This document shows positions 42,713 to 57,799 of a stretch of 64,000 nt of DNA, piece by piece. Below the pieces are notes generated by a model. That model worked only from the letters and a program-made list of their open reading frames with translations, had not been told where the DNA came from and did not search any database. The stretch is from Glaucostegus cemiculus (taxonomy: Eukaryota): assembly GCA_976551045.1 (NCBI GenBank), contig CDPCPM010000005.1, positions 2,852,001 to 2,916,000 of the forward strand. Reading direction: 5' to 3'. How positions within the stretch are numbered: the stretch's first letter is position 1; the number at the start of each line of letters is the position of its first letter. The translations under genes and the position numbers were made by a program.

Positions 42713-43198
42713 AAAAAAAAATCCATTTACCATTCTGTCACCTTTTAAGCAGCAGCTGTCAATCTTAAAAGACACAGAACTCTGCATGTGTGTCACAAAT
42801 TAATAGTAATATGGTAATACTCAAGCATAGTTTTTGATCTGACCAGAGCCACTTCTGCAGCAGTACAACTAATGATAATTAAAGTGCTGACAGGAGGCTG
42901 CAGGGACAAGTGTCGAGTAGGCAGGAGTCCTTTAGCCTTATTCCAATGCCACACTTATGTCCTGACTGTTTCCTTTGCTGCCCGGGTTGGAGAAACCTGT
43001 GAACTGAGAAGGGCCAGGGGAAATGGGCAAAAACCCACCTGAACAAACAAATTAACAATGGTGGTTAAGATCTGAAGTTGATGAACCCAGTGTTGAGTCC
43101 AACTGGTTGAAAAGTACCTATATGAAGGTTACCAGCGTGTGACCTAACAGTGTTGCTGCATTGAATGAAGACTTTGAAACATCTTTTTCAAAATCAAG

Positions 43199-43532
43199 GA
43201 TTTCAGGATCCTTTGCACTGATTTCAGGGTCCTTTGTACTGATTTCAGGATCCTTTGCACTGATTTCAGGGTCCTTTGCACTGATTTCAGGGTCCTTTGT
43301 ACTGATTTCAGGATCCTTTGCACTGATTTCAGGGTCCTTTGTACTGATTTCAGGATCCTTTGTACTGATTTCAGGATCCTTTGCACTGATTTCAGGGTCC
43401 TTTGTACTGATTTCAGGATCCTTTGTACTGATTTCAGGATCCTTTGCACTGATTTCAGGGTCCTTTGCACTGATTTCAGGGCCCTTTGTACTGATTTCAG
43501 GATCCTTTGCACTGATTTCAGGGTCCTTTGCA
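43199..43532. repeat. 21-bp minisatellite GATTTCAGG(A/G)TCCTTTG(C/T)ACT, about 16 copies
   Basis: 15 full units plus one 19-bp unit, read directly; explains the three repetitive ORFs in the track. Confidence 0.98.
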
Positions 43533-43694
43533 GGATCACAATGTACAGATACCAATCCATTGTTAGCTCCAAAATACTGCAGTCATTTCTGCTCTTTACC
43601 TCCAGCCACATGCGAAATTGGATGCTTGGTTTTCCGCTGCCATTGGGTTGTGCGGGTTTGCACTTTCCAAAAGAGGTTTAAACTTTTCATGTAA

Positions 43695-48631: not shown

Positions 48632-51600
48632 CTAACTCTTTCCACCCTCATATCCTACTATTCCACATTCTTCCATGTGCTTATCTAACAATCTCTTAAA
48701 CCTGTCCAACGTATCTACCTCCACTACCACCCCAGGCAGTGCATTCCATGCACCAACCACTCTCTGGGTGAAAAACTTCCCTCTGACGTCTCCCCTATAC
48801 TTTTCACCTATTATCTTAAAGGCATGCCCTCTCGTCTTGAGCATCTGCGCTCTGGGAAAGAGGCGCTGACTATTAACTCTATCTATTCCTCTCAATATCT
48901 TAAACACCTCTATCAAGTCCCCTCTCATCCTCCTCCTCTCTAATGAGTAGAGCCCTAACACCTTAAGCCTCTCTTTATATTCCATACCCTCCAATCCAGG
49001 CATCATCCTGGTAAAACGCCTCTGCACCCTCTCCAACGCCTCCACATCCTTCCTATAATGCGGCGACCAAAACTGAACACAATATTCCAAGTGCGGCCTA
49101 ACTAGAGTTTTGTAAAGCAGCATCATCACCTCTCTGCTCTTGAACTCAATCCCTTTATTTATAAAAGCCAACATCCCATAAGCCTTCTTAACAGCCCTAT
49201 CCACCTGCGAGGCAACTTTGAGCGAACTGTGGATATGAACCCCCAGATCCCTCTGCTCCTCTACACTGCCAAGAACCTTACCATTTACCTTATACTCTGT
49301 CCTGGAGTTTGTCCTCCCAAAGTGCACCACCTCACACTTCTCCGGATTAAACTCCATCTGCCACCTATCAGCCCATTTCTGCATCCTATCAATATCCCCC
49401 TGTAAGCTCCTACAGTCCTCCACACTATCTACCACACCACCGATCTTGGTGTCATCTGCAAACTTACCAACCCATCCCTCCACTCCTTCATCCAAATCAT
49501 CTATGAATATAACAAAGAGTAGAGGCCCCAGAACCGATCCCTGCGGGACTCCACTAGTCACAGCCCTCCAATCCGAGGGCACTCCCTCCACCATAACCCT
49601 CTGCCTTCTACAGGAAAGCCAATTTCTTATCCACACAGCCAACCTCCCCTGGATACCTCGACCTCTGACCTTCTGAAGAAGCCTGCCATGAGGAACCTTA
49701 TCGAACGCCTTACTAAAATCCATATACACTACATCCACCGCCCTGCCCTCATCAAGCTTCCTCGTCACCTCCTCAAAGAACTCTATCAGGCTCGTGAGGC
49801 AAGATCTTCCCTTCACAAAGCCATGCTGACTGTCCCTAATCAGTCCATGACTCTCCAAGTGCTCATAGATCCTGTCCCTCAAAATCCTTTCCAACAGCTT
49901 ACCTACCACAGACGTGAGGCTCACCGGTCTGTAATTTCCCGGACTATCTCTACTGCCCTTCTTAAACAAGGGAACAATATCCGCTACTCGCCAATCCTCC
50001 GGCACCATCCCCGTGGACAACGAGGACTCAAAGATCCTCACCAGCGGATCAACAATCTCCTCCCTCGCCTCCCGAAGCAGCCTGGGGAATATTCCATCGG
50101 GCCCCGGAGACTTATCAGTCTTGATACTACTTAACAATTTCATCACCTCCTCCCTCTCTATAGCTACATACTCAAGAATATTACCCTTGTCAGCACTCAC
50201 TGTCACATCATCAAGGCCCCTCTCCTTGGTGAATACAGAGGAGAAGTATTCATTAAGTACCTCCCCTACCTCTGCCGCCTCCAGGCACATCCTCCCACCT
50301 TTGTCCTTAATAGGCCCTACCTTTACCCTAGTCATCCTTCTGCCCTTCACATAAGAGAAAAAAGCCTTGGGATTTTCCTTAACCCTACGAGCCAACATCT
50401 TTTCATGTCCCCTTCTAGCTCTCCTCAGCTCTTTCTTAAGTTCCCTTCTCACTATACTATACTCCTCACGGGCCACATCAGAGCCTTGCCGCTTACACCT
50501 TACGTAAGCCTCCTTCTTCCTCCTAACCAGTCTTTCTACCTCTCTTGTCACCCACGGTTCCTTCACTATTCCATTCTTCCTCCGTCTTGCCGGAACATAT
50601 CTGTCCCCAACATCCTGTAAAACATCCCTGAACAACGTCCACATCTCTACAGTACACATCCCCTCAAAAAGGACTTCCCAATTTACACTCCCAAGCTCTT
50701 TCCTTATAGCCTCATAGTCTGCCCTACCCCAATTGAATATCTTCCTACGCTCCCTGCACTTATGCCTGTCCATGACAATTCTAAAGCTTATCGAGGAATG
50801 ATCACTGTCTCCCAGAGGCTCACCCACTAGTAGATCTCTCACCTGTCCCGGTTCATTTCCTAAGACCAGATCCAACACAGCATTCCCTCTAGTCGGTTTG
50901 TCAACATACTGCTCCAGAAATCCATCCTGGACACACTTAACAAACTCATTCCCATCCAAACCTCTGGCACTGAGCATGTCCCAGTCTATATTCGGGAAGT
51001 TGAAATCACCCATTATTACAACCCTATTATCTTTGCTTCTGTCCAAGCACTGCCTGCCAATCTGCTCCTCTATATCCCTACTGCTACCTGGGGGCCTATA
51101 GTATACTCCCAGCAGCGTAACCACACTTTTCCTATTCCTCACTTCCACCCACACCGACTCGAAAGAGGATCCTTCCGCAAACTCAGCCCTTTCCGCAGCC
51201 GTAACATCATCTCTGACCAATATCGCCACCCCTCCTCCTCTTCTCCCCCCCTCCCTATCCTTTTTAAAACACTGAAAACCAGGAATGTTCAATACCCACT
51301 CCTGCCCTGACGACAGCCACGTCTCAGTTATGGCTACAATATCATAATCCCCCATACCTATCCAAGCCCTCAATTCATCACCCTTATTCCTAACACTTCT
51401 CGCATTAAAGTAAACACACTTTAACCCATCCAATTTAACCCTTTTATAGCCCTCATCCTGCCTCTCTCTCCCCAAAGCCTCATCACCTGCTCGATGCAAC
51501 TCATCTCCATCTTCAGTACACGTCGACGTGATCCTGCATACCTCCTCCTTTAAGCCATGTTGGTTTCCCTTGCCTTGCCTGTCTAGTTTATCCACCTTTT

Positions 51601-51733
51601 TACTATTACTGCCTGTACACTGCTTCTCCTTCCTCAAAGCAACTCCATTTGTCAGATCTGCCTTTTCTGTAATCCCTACATCCTCTGACCAGCCCTCCTG
51701 GTTCCCAACCCCCATCTCAACTAGTTTAAACAC
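48632..51733 (-). CDS. CR1 ORF2: apurinic endonuclease + reverse transcriptase
   Basis: 1033 open codons. APE motifs YFNARS, ITETW, YRPP, GDFN, LDLV, SDH; RT motifs PGPDG, NYRPVSL, QHGF, DFSKAFD, GVPQGSVLGP, FADD. First in-frame ATG at 51715. Confidence 0.97.
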   Translation of the reverse strand: MFKLVEMGVGNQEGWSEDVGITEKADLTNGVALRKEKQCTGSNSKKVDKLDRQGKGNQHGLKEEVCRITSTCTEDGDELHRAGDEALGRERQDEGYKRVKLDGLKCVYFNARSVRNKGDELRAWIGMGDYDIVAITETWLSSGQEWVLNIPGFQCFKKDREGGRRGGGVAILVRDDVTAAERAEFAEGSSFESVWVEVRNRKSVVTLLGVYYRPPGSSRDIEEQIGRQCLDRSKDNRVVIMGDFNFPNIDWDMLSARGLDGNEFVKCVQDGFLEQYVDKPTRGNAVLDLVLGNEPGQVRDLLVGEPLGDSDHSSISFRIVMDRHKCRERRKIFNWGRADYEAIRKELGSVNWEVLFEGMCTVEMWTLFRDVLQDVGDRYVPARRRKNGIVKEPWVTREVERLVRRKKEAYVRCKRQGSDVAREEYSIVRRELKKELRRARRGHEKMLARRVKENPKAFFSYVKGRRMTRVKVGPIKDKGGRMCLEAAEVGEVLNEYFSSVFTKERGLDDVTVSADKGNILEYVAIEREEVMKLLSSIKTDKSPGPDGIFPRLLREAREEIVDPLVRIFESSLSTGMVPEDWRVADIVPLFKKGSRDSPGNYRPVSLTSVVGKLLERILRDRIYEHLESHGLIRDSQHGFVKGRSCLTSLIEFFEEVTRKLDEGRAVDVVYMDFSKAFDKVPHGRLLQKVRGRGIQGRLAVWIRNWLSCRRQRVMVEGVPSDWRAVTSGVPQGSVLGPLLFVIFIDDLDEGVEGWVGKFADDTKIGGVVDSVEDCRSLQGDIDRMQKWADRWQMEFNPEKCEVVHFGRTNSRTEYKVNGKVLGSVEEQRDLGVHIHSSLKVASQVDRAVKKAYGMLAFINKGIEFKSREVMMLLYKTLVRPHLEYCVQFWSPHYRKDVEALERVQRRFTRMMPGLEGMEYKERLKVLGLYSLERRRMRGDLIEVFKILRGIDRVNSQRLFPRAQMLKTRGHAFKIIGEKYRGDVRGKFFTQRVVGAWNALPGVVVEVDTLDRFKRLLDKHMEECGIVGYEGGKS

Positions 51734-52380
51734 TCATCAACCACCCAAGCATAACGTGTTGCCAGGATATTTGCCCCCCACCGGTTGGGGTGTAACCTGT
51801 CCTCTCTGTACAGGTTCCACCTTCCCCAGAATAGATCCCAATTATCCAAAAATCTAAATCCCTCTGCCCTGCACCACTCTCTCAGCCACGTATTTAACTG
51901 CCTCCTCTCCCTGTTCCTAACTTCCCTATCACGTGGCACCGGGAGTAATCCAGAGATTACTACCCTTGAGGTCCTGGTCTTCAGCTTTCTGCCTAGCTCC
52001 CTGAACTCCCCTTGCAGGACCTCATCCCTCTTTCTACCTATGTCGTTGGTACCAACATGAACCACGACTACTGGCTGCTCTCCCTCCCGATTGAGAATCC
52101 GGGGAACCCGATCAGTAATATCCTGGACCCTGGCACCAGGGAGGCAACATACCATCCGGTATTCATGATCACTTCCACAGAATCTCCTATCTGTTTCCCT
52201 GACTATCGAGTCCCCTATCACCACTACATTACTCTTCACCTTCTTCCCCATCTGAGCAGTAGTACTGGTCATGGTGCCAGTGACCTGGGTACTTGTGCTT
52301 GGTCCCTGCAGGCTATCCCCCTCCACAGTTTCCAAAGTTGAAAACCTGTTACTGAGGGGAACAGCCCCCAGGGTGCCCTG
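51721..52380 (-). CDS. CR1 ORF1 C-terminal part, SGNH/GDSL esterase domain (5'-truncated)
   Basis: PLSNRF, VIGDSIVR, PGARV, HVGTND and DRLHPN blocks; frame stays open to the truncation point; ends ...ECLN*. Confidence 0.93.
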   Translation of the reverse strand, partial: QGTLGAVPLSNRFSTLETVEGDSLQGPSTSTQVTGTMTSTTAQMGKKVKSNVVVIGDSIVRETDRRFCGSDHEYRMVCCLPGARVQDITDRVPRILNREGEQPVVVVHVGTNDIGRKRDEVLQGEFRELGRKLKTRTSRVVISGLLPVPRDREVRNRERRQLNTWLREWCRAEGFRFLDNWDLFWGRWNLYREDRLHPNRWGANILATRYAWVVDECLN

Positions 52381-52381
52381 C

Positions 52382-52578
52382 TCTACCTTGCGCGACCTTG
52401 CACCTTATTGCACTGCACTTTCTCTGTAGCTGTGACACTTTATTCTGTACTGTTACTGTTTTCACTGTACTATTTCAATGGCACTGTGTAATGAATTGAC
52501 CTGTATGATCGGTTTGTAAGACAAGTTTTTCACTGTACCTCGGTACAAGTGACAATAATAAACCAATACCAATACCAT
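52382..52578 (+). mobile_element. Rex1/Babar 3' UTR; its 5' piece lies at 48525-48542, split by CR1 element A
   Basis: Joining GACCTCACATTCTACCTT to GCGCGACCTTGCACCTTATTG matches the intact copy at 46110-46340. Confidence 0.85.
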
Positions 52579-53280: not shown

Positions 53281-53583
53281 AGGGTCCTGAAGGAAGAATA
53301 CAGAGAGTTAGGAAGAAAGTTGAGGAGAAGGACCCCTAAGGTGGTAATCTCAGGATTGCTGCCTGTGCCACGCGCAAGCAGTAGCAGGAACAGAAAGATT
53401 TGGCAAATAAACGCGTGGCTTAGTGACTGGTGCAGGGGGCAGGGCTTCAGATTCCTGGACCATTGGGACCTTTTTTGGGGGAGGGACGACCTATACTGCA
53501 AGGATGGGTTACACCTCAACTCAAAAGGGTCCAGAGTCCTGGCGGGATTATTTAACATAGCTGTTGGGGAAGGTTTAAACTAA
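53281..53583 (+). CDS. CR1 ORF1 C-terminal esterase fragment
   Basis: VVISGLLPVPR, NAWLSDWC, FLDHWDLFWGR, DGLHLN; homologous to element A ORF1; ends ...EGLN*. Confidence 0.92.
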   Translation, partial: RVLKEEYRELGRKLRRRTPKVVISGLLPVPRASSSRNRKIWQINAWLSDWCRGQGFRFLDHWDLFWGRDDLYCKDGLHLNSKGSRVLAGLFNIAVGEGLN

Positions 53584-56500
53584 TCAAGCAGGGGGATGGG
53601 ACCCAGAATATTAGGGTAAAAGTAGATAGAGGAAGGCAAGAGTTAAATAAAAATAGGTCAAAGTTAGTGCGTGATCAGGATGGCAAGACGGACAGGCAGG
53701 TAATTAATCAAGGTAACATGCTGAATGACAATAGTACAGTAAATGAGGATGTTAGGTCACAGAATGTTAGACGAGAGGTGGAGGCAGATAAAAAGAAGTC
53801 CATGACAGTGAGCAGTCAGGATCGAAAGAAGGGCGAGGAAATGGAAATTAAGGATAAGTTGCTCAAGAAAGGAAGCGCAGCAAAATCAACAGTGGTTAAT
53901 GAGCTAAAGGTATTATACTTAAATGCACGTAGCATCAGGAACAAGGCAGATGAACTAGCAGCACAGCTGCAGATTAATAAATATGACATTGTGGCAATTA
54001 CTGAGTCGTGGCTGCATGATGGATGTGACTGGGAGCTCAATGTCCAGGGGTACACAGTGTATAGGAAGGATAGGCGGGAAGGTAGAGGGGGTGGTGTGGC
54101 CATGATGGTTAGTAATGAGATAAAATCAATAGAAAGGAAGGATATTAGGTCAGATGAAGTGGAAACTTTATGGGTGGAGCTAAGGAATAGCAAGAGTAAG
54201 AGGACAGTTGTAGCTGTTGTATATAGGCCCCCTAATAGCAATCAGGAGGTAGACCATAAGTTGCGGTTAGAGATAGAAAAGGCATGTCAGAGTGACAATA
54301 TCAAAATAATTATGGGTGACTTTAACATGAAGGTGGACTGGGAAACCCAGCAAGGCAGCAGTTCTCAGGAGAGCGAGTTTGTTGAATGTTTACGGGATGG
54401 CTTTTTGGAACAACTTGTTGATGAGCCCACCAGGGGATCGGCTGTTTTGGATTGGGTGTTGTGTAATGAACCGGAGGTGATTAGAGAACTAAGGGTAAAG
54501 GAACCATTAGGAACTAGTGACCATAATATGATTGAGTTCAGAATGAAATTTGAAAAGGAGAAGCTGATGACTGGAGTGTCGACATTTCAGTGGAACAAGG
54601 GGAATTACAGAAGGATGAGAGAAGAGTTGGCCCAGATTGATTGGGAATATAAGCTCGCTGGAGGGACGGCCGAACATAAATGGGTGGAATTTAAGCAAGT
54701 AATAAAGAAAATGCAGGACAGACACATTCCAAGAAAAAAGAAGGTTTTAAATGGAAAAAGGGCACAAATGTGGATAACGAGAGAGGTGAAAGCTAAAATA
54801 AGAGCAAAAGGGAGGGCATATAAGGTAGCAAGAAAAAGCGGAAAAACAGAAGACTGGGAAACTTTTAAGAACCTACAGAAAGAAACTAAGAAGGTCATTA
54901 GAAAAGAAAAGAGAAATTACGAAATGAAATTGGCAGAAAATATTCAAAAGGATACTAAGAGTTTTTTTAAATATATAAGAAGCAAAAGAGAGACGCGGGT
55001 TGATATAGGACCGATAGAAAATGAGGTGGGAGAGATTATTATGGGTGATAAAGAGATGGCGGAGGAGCTAAATCAGTATTTTGCGTCGGTCTTCACGGTA
55101 GAAGATATTAACAATATACCGGTTAGTCAAGGGTCTCGAGGGACGGAATTAAAGACAGTTAAGGTTACGAGAGAGAAAGTGTTGGGGAAGCTAAATGGGT
55201 TAAAGACTGATAAGTCTCCGGGACCGGATGAGATACATCCCCGTGTACTGAAGGAAGTAGCTCTAGAAATAGTGGAGGCATTAGTGATAATTTTTCAGGA
55301 ATCGATAGACGCTGGAGAGGTGCCGGAGGACTGGAGGGTCGCGAATGTAGTTCCATTGTATAAGAAAGGTGGGAGACAGCACAGAGGAAATTACAGACCT
55401 ATCAGTCTTACATCTGTGGTGGGGAAGATACTAGAATCGATCCTCAAGGATGAGGTGATGGGATACATGGAGGTGCAAGGCAAGATAGGTCCTAGTCAAC
55501 ATGGATTCGTGAAGGGAAGATCCTGCCTGACCAATTTATTGGAGTTTTTTGAAGAAATCTCAGGCAGGGTGGACAAGGGAGAGGCCGTAGATGTAGTGTA
55601 TTTAGACTTTCAGAAGGCATTCGACAAGGTGCCGCACAAAAGACTAATTAGTAAGATGAGAGATCACGGAATAACGGGCAGGATAACAGAATGGGTGGAG
55701 AGTTGGCTGGATGGCAGGAAACAGAGGGTGGGAATAAAAGGATCGTGTTCTGGTTGGCTGCCGGTTACTAGTGGTGTTCCGCAGGGGTCGGTGTTGGGGC
55801 CCCTTCTTTTTACCTTATATATTAATGATTTAGACGAAGGAGTCAATGGGTTTGTGGCCAAGTTTGCAGATGACACTAAGATTGGGGGAGGAGTGGAGAG
55901 TATTGAGGAGACAGGAAAGTTACAGAGAGACTTGGATATTCTAGGAGAATGGGCGAAGAAATGGCAGATGAGGTTCAACGTGGAAAAATGTGCAGTTGTA
56001 CACTTCGGAAGTAGAAATGGAAGGGCAGACTATTATCTAGAAGGAGATAAAATTGGAAGCACAGAAGTACAAAGGGACTTAGGGGTGCTCGTACAGGATA
56101 ACCTAAAGGTTAACCGCCAGGTTGGATCGGCAGTAAGGAAAGCGAATGCTATGTTGGCATTTATTTCGAGGGGTATAGTATATAAAAGCAAGGAAGTGTT
56201 GATGAGGCTATATGGGGCACTGGTGAGGCCTCACTTGGAGTACTGTGTGCAGTTTTGGGCCCCATACCTTAGGAAGGATGTGCTGATGTTGGAGAGGGTT
56301 CAGAGGAGATTTACTAGGATGATTCCTGGGATGAAAAAGTTTACATATGACGAGCGACTGTCGTCACTTGGACTGTACTCGTTGGAGTACAGAAGAATGA
56401 GAGGGGACCTAATAGAAACGTACAGGATGTTGAAAGGAATGGACCAAGTGAATGTGGTCAAGCTGTTTCCCTTGGTGGGGGAATCCAGGACTAGAGGACA

Positions 56501-56702
56501 CAAACTTAGAATTAGAAGAAGCAGGTTCATAACAGAGATAAGGAGGAATTTCTTTAGCCAGAGGGTGGTGAACCTGTGGAACTCCTTACCACAGAGAGCA
56601 GTGGAAGCCAGATCATTGGGGATATTCAAGAAGGAAATAGATAGATATCTAATTGGTCAAGGTATCAGGGGATATGGAGATAAGGCAGGGATTTGGACTT
56701 AG
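53574..56702 (+). CDS. CR1 ORF2: apurinic endonuclease + reverse transcriptase
   Basis: Frame open from the ORF1 junction (FKLIKQGDG...; the ORF track starts at GTG 53667, first ATG 53718). Motifs LNARS, ITESW, YRPP, GDFN, SDH, PGPD, QHGF, DFQKAFD, GVPQGSVLGP, FADD. Confidence 0.97.
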   Translation, partial: FKLIKQGDGTQNIRVKVDRGRQELNKNRSKLVRDQDGKTDRQVINQGNMLNDNSTVNEDVRSQNVRREVEADKKKSMTVSSQDRKKGEEMEIKDKLLKKGSAAKSTVVNELKVLYLNARSIRNKADELAAQLQINKYDIVAITESWLHDGCDWELNVQGYTVYRKDRREGRGGGVAMMVSNEIKSIERKDIRSDEVETLWVELRNSKSKRTVVAVVYRPPNSNQEVDHKLRLEIEKACQSDNIKIIMGDFNMKVDWETQQGSSSQESEFVECLRDGFLEQLVDEPTRGSAVLDWVLCNEPEVIRELRVKEPLGTSDHNMIEFRMKFEKEKLMTGVSTFQWNKGNYRRMREELAQIDWEYKLAGGTAEHKWVEFKQVIKKMQDRHIPRKKKVLNGKRAQMWITREVKAKIRAKGRAYKVARKSGKTEDWETFKNLQKETKKVIRKEKRNYEMKLAENIQKDTKSFFKYIRSKRETRVDIGPIENEVGEIIMGDKEMAEELNQYFASVFTVEDINNIPVSQGSRGTELKTVKVTREKVLGKLNGLKTDKSPGPDEIHPRVLKEVALEIVEALVIIFQESIDAGEVPEDWRVANVVPLYKKGGRQHRGNYRPISLTSVVGKILESILKDEVMGYMEVQGKIGPSQHGFVKGRSCLTNLLEFFEEISGRVDKGEAVDVVYLDFQKAFDKVPHKRLISKMRDHGITGRITEWVESWLDGRKQRVGIKGSCSGWLPVTSGVPQGSVLGPLLFTLYINDLDEGVNGFVAKFADDTKIGGGVESIEETGKLQRDLDILGEWAKKWQMRFNVEKCAVVHFGSRNGRADYYLEGDKIGSTEVQRDLGVLVQDNLKVNRQVGSAVRKANAMLAFISRGIVYKSKEVLMRLYGALVRPHLEYCVQFWAPYLRKDVLMLERVQRRFTRMIPGMKKFTYDERLSSLGLYSLEYRRMRGDLIETYRMLKGMDQVNVVKLFPLVGESRTRGHKLRIRRSRFITEIRRNFFSQRVVNLWNSLPQRAVEARSLGIFKKEIDRYLIGQGIRGYGDKAGIWT

Positions 56703-57799
56703 AATAGTAGGTGGGTTTTTTTTTTTCCCCCCCCCCCCCCCCCACCTTCCCTTCCCTTTGGAGCAGACTCGATGGGCCGACTGGCCTGCTTCTGCTCCAT
56801 TATCTTGTGATCTTGTGATCTTGTGAATCTATAAGCAGTAGCACAGATGAGTTGGGCTGATTGGCCTCTTTCTGTGCCACCTAGACTATGTAATTTAATG
56901 CAATGTATTCATTCAAGAGCAGTATGATCTTACACATTTGAACATGCTCCCTCTTCTCTGTGGGACTGAGCGCCATTCAGTGCAAAACTGTATATGGATT
57001 CCTTTTCGTCATTCAGTGATTCTGAAGGAAATCTTTCTCGATATCCCTTGCAAAAAACAAGCAGTTCTCTGGCTGCTGGCAAGGCTGACAGAAGGGAGGA
57101 AACACATGTTTGCTACTGCACCAAGCCTCTTGAGAAAAGCATGACAACCCTTCAATCCTTTTCGTGTGCCCAAATCTTCCTTTTATCCAGTTTCTTCACA
57201 ACTCTTTCAAAAGGGATAATTTAACATATTTGATATCATAAAGCACTTATTCCCTCAGAATTGAAATGCAGCATTTGATTTAGAGAAGATAACACATGAT
57301 CGTGGATAAATTGACAAGTGTTAAGGCTACTGTCAATATAGTTCATCCATCAAGTGATTTCAAAAGCAGTAGGGTTGATAGCTGAACCACTTGGCAGAGA
57401 TTTAGCAATTGCACTGTAATGAACCTGATCATGTCTGTCCTTTCCTATCTTGACAGATGACAAGCTCTCCTGCAGAGCATGCGGTAGTATATATGAAACA
57501 GAACTGTCTAGCATTTAACCAGTGGATGGAACATGTGTTTAGCTGAAGGAAAACCACAACTCCAAATGTTAATTATTGGTATTTTTTATTTATTTCATTC
57601 TTCAATTATTGTGTCAGTCCCAAGATGGAAATTGTTTTGTTAAAATGAAGCATGGTGGTTAATGCTTCGGAATAAAAATGAGTTATTTTTCATCCTCTAA
57701 TACAAATGGAATGCATAATGCCATGATAAAAACAAATGGTAAACACACTGCCATTATATACTGAAACAATGTTGATGACCAAAGCTGATCCTACAATTG

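Follow-up and report, generated by a model that had tools for sequence, protein, structure and literature searches.

How does a CR1 element translate its second gene? The question is raised by a 64,000-nucleotide stretch of Glaucostegus cemiculus DNA (contig CDPCPM010000005.1; this whole stretch is called the window), in which two CR1-type long interspersed nuclear elements (LINEs) lie back-to-back: element A occupies the minus strand, element B the plus strand. Both consist of the remnant of a first open reading frame (ORF1), encoding an esterase, and an uninterrupted ORF2 for an apurinic/apyrimidinic endonuclease and a reverse transcriptase (APE-RT). The two frames meet at the heptamer U_UUA_AAC. 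A programmed -1 frameshift at this site, giving an ORF1-linker-endonuclease-RT fusion, is probably the route to ORF2, judging from sequence. A sequence-only reading of element B had proposed the same, and tests of conservation across families favour the proposal, the slippage itself being predicted. The signal is conserved and CR1-wide.

Organization of the junction

Element B, plus strand:
53281..53583, + strand: 3' remnant of ORF1 (SGNH esterase), 100 codons, ending L-N-stop
53553..53555, + strand: TAA closing the -1 (ORF2) frame, 18 nt upstream of the heptamer
53574..53580, + strand: slippery heptamer U_UUA_AAC in ORF1 phase, the predicted -1 shift site
53581..53583, + strand: ORF1 stop TAA, 3'-adjacent to the heptamer
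53591..53600, + strand: G-rich motif GGGGG-NN-GGG at +11 to +20, a candidate unstructured 3' stimulator
53574..53897, + strand: linker, with no stop in the -1 frame and 9 and 15 in the other frames
53574..56702, + strand: ORF2 counted from the heptamer, 1042 aa, APE endonuclease and RT, uninterrupted
56703..56826, + strand: 3' untranslated region (UTR), with a U-run/C-run and terminal 8-nt repeats
Element A, minus strand:
51721..52387, - strand: ORF1 remnant (esterase), ending L-N-TAG
51724..51730, - strand: heptamer U_UUA_AAC; -1 frame closed by TGA (51736-51734), 3 nt upstream
51704..51715, - strand: in-frame ATG (51715-51713) overlapping the G-rich motif (from 51713)
48632..51730, - strand: ORF2 counted from the heptamer, 1032 aa, APE and RT, uninterrupted

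In element B, ORF1 ends GGT TTA AAC TAA, with TTTAAAC in the X_XXY_YYZ phase. The -1 frame is closed by the TAA at 53553, and 48 codons run from the heptamer to its first ATG, at 53718; two out-of-frame ATGs, at 53596 and 53680, come before it. The in-frame ATG of element A is only 8 nt from the heptamer. GGGGG-NN-GGG starts 10 nt after the heptamer in both elements. All these details of the sequence-only reading were recovered from the sequence. The mere presence of TTTAAAC is uninformative, since the window holds 27 matches on its two strands; position, phase and conservation of the heptamer are nevertheless far beyond chance.

Matches to PF03372 (APE) and PF00078 (RT) occur in ORF2 of both elements, and the endonuclease also matches L1 endonuclease (EN) structures. 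The ORF1 esterase matches PF13472 and the ZfL2-1 ORF1p esterase (PDB 4C1B, E 2e-29). Element B is 5'-truncated at ~53280, and only the final 100 ORF1 codons remain; in sister copies of its family (family B) the full-length ORF1 has 307 aa. Full-length ORF1 copies show Cys pairs (zinc finger) and an L-rich helix, with a coiled coil judged by eye. The short 3' UTR with tandem 8-nt terminal repeats and the frequent 5' truncation are those of CR1-type elements, and the closest named ORF1 homologues come from rays and sharks. The elements are probably CR1, a label based on architecture and vertebrate ORF1 homologues. Family B is young and abundant, with 2317 candidates in the genome; the 40 that were scored are all ~100% identical over 601 nt.

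Conservation of the heptamer

ORF1 ends of this genome were gathered without reference to the heptamer, through a Pfam family search, six protein queries, 40 random 10-kb stretches and 20 more rows of one match list; 29 copies from a DNA query that contained the heptamer were added. They group into about ten families. The exact heptamer is present at the homologous place in 133 of 158 ends, 11 have one mismatch (144 within one), 8 have two and 6 have three or more; excluding the 29 DNA-query copies leaves 104 of 129 exact. The random stretches yielded 10 ends, 5 with the exact heptamer and the others old and broken.

The same ending is found beyond this genome. The esterase His motif lies 22-30 aa before the end in 52 of 92 homologous ORF1 proteins, and these 52 terminate in L-N (51/52, named shark, ray, Xenopus and lizard proteins included) or I-N (one). 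Of 80 loci from a scan of metagenomes, 47 include an ORF1 end, and 19 of these are vertebrate-type (best matches to lizard-like or frog-like proteins). These 19 comprise 12 with TTTAAAC-stop in frame, 5 with the heptamer and nearby damage and 2 with a mutated heptamer. Of 11 metagenome loci with a reliable anchor and an endonuclease, 9 have ORF2 in the -1 frame.

Constraint was examined at the nucleotide level on 24 representatives, 10 from this genome and 14 from metagenomes, taken as one intact-looking copy per family or locus and covering cartilaginous-fish, amniote-like and amphibian-like elements and one distant element. All seven bases are identical in 23; the 24th carries G_GGA_AAC, another canonical shifty heptamer. 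In the 23, Leu is always TTA, Asn always AAC and the preceding wobble base always T, despite variation in the amino acid of that preceding codon (G, C, S, A, H, T). Parsimony on the tree gives 0, 0 and 0 changes at the Leu, Asn and preceding wobble positions. For comparison, five further conserved Leu columns have 4-9 synonymous changes, a different Asn has 4, and the third positions of all remaining columns have 1-13. Of the 255 Leu codons that these ORF1 ends contain, 37 are TTA, and median third-position identity among the representatives is 0.36. The ORF1 stop keeps TA and varies in its third base (A, G, or C in one subfamily). Because synonymous changes are absent here and number 4-9 at other Leu columns, the constraint at the heptamer acts on RNA or DNA, not on protein. 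The expectation of the sequence-only reading that heptamer and phase would be kept at synonymous positions across families is borne out.

Some further features of ORF1 emerged. A short L-x-N-R-[FY]-x-x-L motif (alignment columns 301-320) is kept from sharks to lizards and crustacean-type elements and is duplicated in family B (L005 residues 78-83 and 100-107). Protein P0023, labelled a Pseudomonas aeruginosa SGNH hydrolase, is 51% identical to this CR1 ORF1 and ends L-N; it is likely vertebrate contamination in a bacterial record. Host annotations containing CR1 ORF1 (ribosomal protein S24, TMEM204, NCOA5 and ABHD14A isoforms; P0022, P0079, P0080, P0085, P0087) would be annotation artefacts or exonisation.

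Phase, linker and start codons

ORF2 lies in the -1 frame at 104 of the 130 junctions of this genome with an endonuclease downstream (family B 30/31, A 26/27, C 29/36, D 7/14, E 6/8; old families F 2/7, G 1/2, H 2/2; singletons 1/3), and the modal length of the linker is 2 mod 3 for each of the five families with good sampling. Sixteen different linker lengths, from 74 to 317 nt, all preserve this phase, and a 27-nt deletion common to 5 family A copies is in frame. Over 20 representatives, only old copies interrupt the pre-ATG stretch of the -1 frame, with 2 stops in 579 codons where 36.7 would be expected; the other two frames have 34 and 66. In 9 of the 24 representatives the -1 frame is closed 3-6 nt upstream of the heptamer, so that entry into the ORF2 frame occurs at or after it.

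Start codons are not kept in this way. The position of the first in-frame ATG is not conserved, and no conserved AUG overlaps or adjoins the ORF1 stop as in SART1. Some families have no usable ATG: in families C and D none precedes the endonuclease, no near-cognate codon is shared, and the first ATG typically falls 25 and 38 codons inside the endonuclease (aligned to about L1 EN residues 33 and 46). These ATGs are downstream of the first active-site Asn (C and D) and, in D, of Glu, the counterparts N14 and E43 of L1 EN being presumably catalytic. The ORF1 stop is also dispensable. TAC replaces it in 18 of 40 family C copies, and in a tree built without those bases 14 of the TAC copies form a pure clade (14 of 14, support 0.86) that keeps the heptamer. 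This variant thus replicated with an unchanged heptamer and a stop that lay 15 codons away.

Two side observations concern the linker region. The element A linker (51420-51720, minus strand) resembles an in-frame tandem duplication of the shorter family C linker. In family E a G-run stands just before the heptamer, and where a copy has one G more, ORF1 continues into ORF2 without a break; L255 (= L237) is a natural open ORF1-ORF2 frame of 1296 aa, and L231 and L242 are similar. The extra G may reflect homopolymer instability or assembly error.

Junctions in distant lineages

An intact distant element, L110 (37% identity), has G_GGA_AAC-UAG at the same place with ORF2 in -1, and 60 open codons precede its first ATG. 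The names of its relatives are those of crustaceans, one flagged as contamination. At the protein level, the ORF1 ends of these relatives (n = 18) include G-N in 4, K-N in 4, E-N in 1 and G-F-x in 3. These endings appear mostly compatible with the four most shifty heptamers (as given in the available part of PMC5009743). In L133 the heptamer is again U_UUA_AAC, ORF1 runs 8 codons further to a stop 24 nt away, and a 14-bp hairpin starts 9 nt downstream (z -3.95, 0/200 shuffles; z -6.3 in another folding run). By its predicted fold the L133 junction is a textbook -1 signal. Further invertebrate relatives were sought in viral contigs, where none was found, and in plasmids, with no match; a search of genome contigs gave 7 loci, and the 4 examined had no LINE ORF1/ORF2 junction. 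Protein P0053, as the query of an own-genome search, gave no match at E 1e-75.

Other distant esterase-ORF1 elements, namely L169 (2043-2140), L158 (2032), L159 (2032), L153 (1682) and L127 (758), carry ORF2 in frame with ORF1, after a single TGA. The TGA is followed by CTA in L158, L159 and L169, presumably a readthrough context, and the first in-frame ATG of L169 is inside the endonuclease. Folding downstream is weak (z -1.1), and L127 has one more stop. Such elements could possibly be a readthrough version of the same fusion.

Proposed mechanism and stimulator

The junction combines an in-phase heptamer, a -1 ORF open from the heptamer and conservation beyond protein coding, three features of a programmed -1 site. 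At Leu-Asn-stop the majority of ribosomes would terminate, the product being the 307-aa ORF1p with its zinc finger, coiled coil and esterase. The others, a minority, would re-pair on UUU-AAA, take CUA as the next codon and so enter ORF2; in family B the predicted outcome is a fusion of 1347 aa with the junction ...EGLN-LIKQ. Slippage, its efficiency and the fusion product are all predicted from the sequence. The frameshift would set a low ORF2:ORF1 ratio and tether the RT to the ORF1p multimer.

What stimulates slippage in vertebrate copies is the weakest step of the model. The sequence-only reading had named the adjacent stop or the G-tracts. The adjacent stop may help slippage but would not be required; as the sole stimulator it is ruled out by the TAC subfamily and by L133. 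Because the stop is dispensable, the G-rich motif is the better candidate, and it is most likely, by analogy, a linear stimulator. G occurs at +11 in 20 of 21 vertebrate representatives, at +12 to +14 in 21 of 21, at +15 in 18 and at +20 in 16; +11, +14 and +20 are wobble positions, at which background G is 32%. The G-runs are thus kept at wobble positions, and heptamer and G-run form one 27-nt conserved block. A protein might bind the motif at +11, or the motif might base-pair with rRNA at the entry channel for mRNA. Linear stimulators at 11-15 nt are described as acting via bound proteins, as in the virus causing porcine reproductive and respiratory syndrome (PRRSV), or possibly via rRNA pairing; in a plant virus, -1 shifting needs a stop placed 3 nt downstream (both PMC5009743).

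The best long-range duplexes of the G-run form at differing places in different families. The family B 3' UTR U-run/C-run (56716-56760) could pair with the G-motif 3.1 kb upstream; it is absent from element A.

Weight of the evidence and alternative routes

Several observations weigh against programmed frameshifting. The canonical -1 signal has a structured stimulator, and the vertebrate signal departs from it: a pseudoknot or stem-loop 5-9 nt downstream is found only in L133. The 21 vertebrate copies folded, with pseudoknots not modelled, give no significant local fold (z +1.6 to -1.7; element B -1.16, element A -0.34). No three-tier G-quadruplex occurs in any vertebrate copy examined, and no long-range partner for the G-run is shared among 14 element stretches. 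L110 and L133 are each single copies, and the one L110 relative ending E-N fits no canonical heptamer. Choosing intact-looking representatives inflates the counts based on them, and old families F, G and H are too decayed for a test of phase (5/11 in -1). Finally, an in-frame ATG lies within 4 codons of the heptamer in 7 of 24 representatives, element A among them, and such near ATGs occur in several separate lineages, more than expected were the ATG irrelevant.

These near ATGs also speak for termination-reinitiation, the strongest rival, in which ribosomes would halt at the ORF1 stop and begin ORF2 anew, whether at an ATG or any other codon, with heptamer and G-run tethering them to the RNA. 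L1 translates its ORF2 by termination-reinitiation and independently of AUG. The ORF1 stop of CR1 is directly adjacent in most families, some representatives without a near ATG have a near-cognate codon, and SART1 uses an overlapping stop-start (in the available text of PMC3708506). Reinitiation nevertheless fails to predict the symmetry of tRNA re-pairing seen in the swap to G_GGA_AAC, the -1 phase fixed over all linker lengths, or an amplified subfamily with a displaced stop. Families C and D would have no ATG to use before the endonuclease, TAC copies lack a near-cognate codon in the first codons, and in element B the out-of-frame ATGs would be met first. Reinitiation as the general route is accordingly improbable, and a mixed form, with frameshifting plus reinitiation where an ATG is near, is possible.

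The conserved block could also be a binding site in RNA or DNA (packaging, recognition by ORF1p or ORF2p, promoter) with no part in decoding, ORF2 being translated otherwise. Nucleotide conservation alone cannot name a function, and heptamer and G-run do behave as one block. A binding site, however, does not require an X_XXY_YYZ phase at a frame overlap, the swap of TTT to GGG preserves only the slippage pattern, and ORF2s without an ATG would still need an entry route, which leaves this explanation very unlikely. Slightly less likely still is a start codon supplied by splicing or an internal transcript, with the motif as branch point or acceptor: an AG follows the heptamer in the TAG families, and AG is also frequent at +10/+11, yet 8 of 21 representatives lack the AG at the stop, the region is rich in purines and has no pyrimidine tract, and the symmetry of the heptamer is unexplained. 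Selection on the C-terminal L-N amino acids alone, with the heptamer as by-product, would account for the nearly invariant protein ending but is rejected because three positions show no synonymous change although every other column does, and distant lineages end in G-N or K-N.

Comparison with known systems

Frameshifting at the CR1 junction resembles retroviral and long terminal repeat (LTR) gag-pol and coronavirus ORF1a/1b in its in-phase X_XXY_YYZ at the overlap of a structural ORF and a -1 RT ORF, and the heptamer of infectious bronchitis virus (IBV) is identical to U_UUA_AAC (both from the available part of PMC5009743). A low-ratio fusion is likewise predicted for CR1. In contrast to these systems, CR1 is a non-LTR element, its stop is directly adjacent, and no pseudoknot or stem-loop was found in vertebrate copies. 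Unlike gag-pol, a domain search of ORF2 in elements A and B found no protease domain. The PRRSV nsp2 frameshift has a linear stimulator, CCCANCUCC, 11 nt downstream, bound by PCBP-nsp1beta (same part of PMC5009743). It shares with CR1 an unstructured conserved motif at the same +11 distance; the PRRSV motif is C-rich and has a binding factor, whereas that of CR1 is G-rich, and the likeness is an analogy only.

That studied non-LTR elements such as L1 and SART1 use reinitiation, as the sequence-only reading stated, holds with a caveat. The Dictyostelium LINEs TRE5-A and TRE3-A are stated to need a -1 frameshift for ORF2 (PMC5911963). They are APE-RT LINEs like CR1, of another clade and ORF1 type; the passage of PMC5911963 concerned names no shift site or assay and says nothing on CR1. 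Paramecium LINEs are suggested, in the available text of PMC5405496, to use +1 frameshifting, reinitiation or readthrough. From these two reports recoding in LINEs is not unprecedented. SART1, with its UAAUG (PMC3708506, available text), resembles CR1 in having a bicistronic LINE RNA with low ORF2 after ORF1; the difference is that SART1 and L1 make a free ORF2p, and no fixed phase or slippery site is needed. ZfL2-1, whose ORF1p esterase is a homologue of that of CR1, is described in the available part of PMC3905857 with no mention of frameshifting.

No literature linking CR1 to a slippery site was found, and the original CR1 sequence papers may mention the overlap. The available part of PMC5009743 discusses HeT-A, TART and L1 and contains no occurrence of CR1; that of PMC13343379 contains none of frameshift, start codon or translat; and the link was likewise not found in the parts consulted of PMC4316615, bioRxiv 788562, PMC4255032, PMC11835228 and PMC7175516.

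Elsewhere in the window, a 21-nt unit is tandemly repeated at 43118-43694, and both strands there have long open frames.

Significance

In most vertebrates the dominant retrotransposon is said to be the CR1 group (PMC13343379), and the literature surveyed, as far as its available text goes, does not address how ORF2 of these elements is translated. Programmed frameshifting, if true, would answer how CR1 elements translate their second gene: the ORF2 product would be a fusion of ~1350 aa rather than an ATG-started polypeptide, which would explain the ATG-less CR1 ORF2s in annotations. The Gag-Pol strategy would be common to a major non-LTR clade, and a natural -1 signal with an apparently unstructured stimulator would be added to the few such known. 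Since the shift site is conserved, a reporter with a 60-nt insert would be enough for a direct test.

A broader reading may be advanced tentatively, though it is rather less likely to hold than to fail. In esterase-type LINEs an ORF1-ORF2 fusion of the Gag-Pol kind may be obligate, made by recoding from signals that can replace one another: U_UUA_AAC with a protein- or rRNA-bound G-rich stimulator in all vertebrate CR1, other heptamers or a heptamer with a hairpin in invertebrates, and UGA readthrough in more distant elements (L169, L153). On this reading, a vertebrate genome would hold many thousands of copies of a -1 frameshift that is structure-free and possibly regulated, and host mRNAs with an exapted CR1 ORF1 end could contain a functional shift site.

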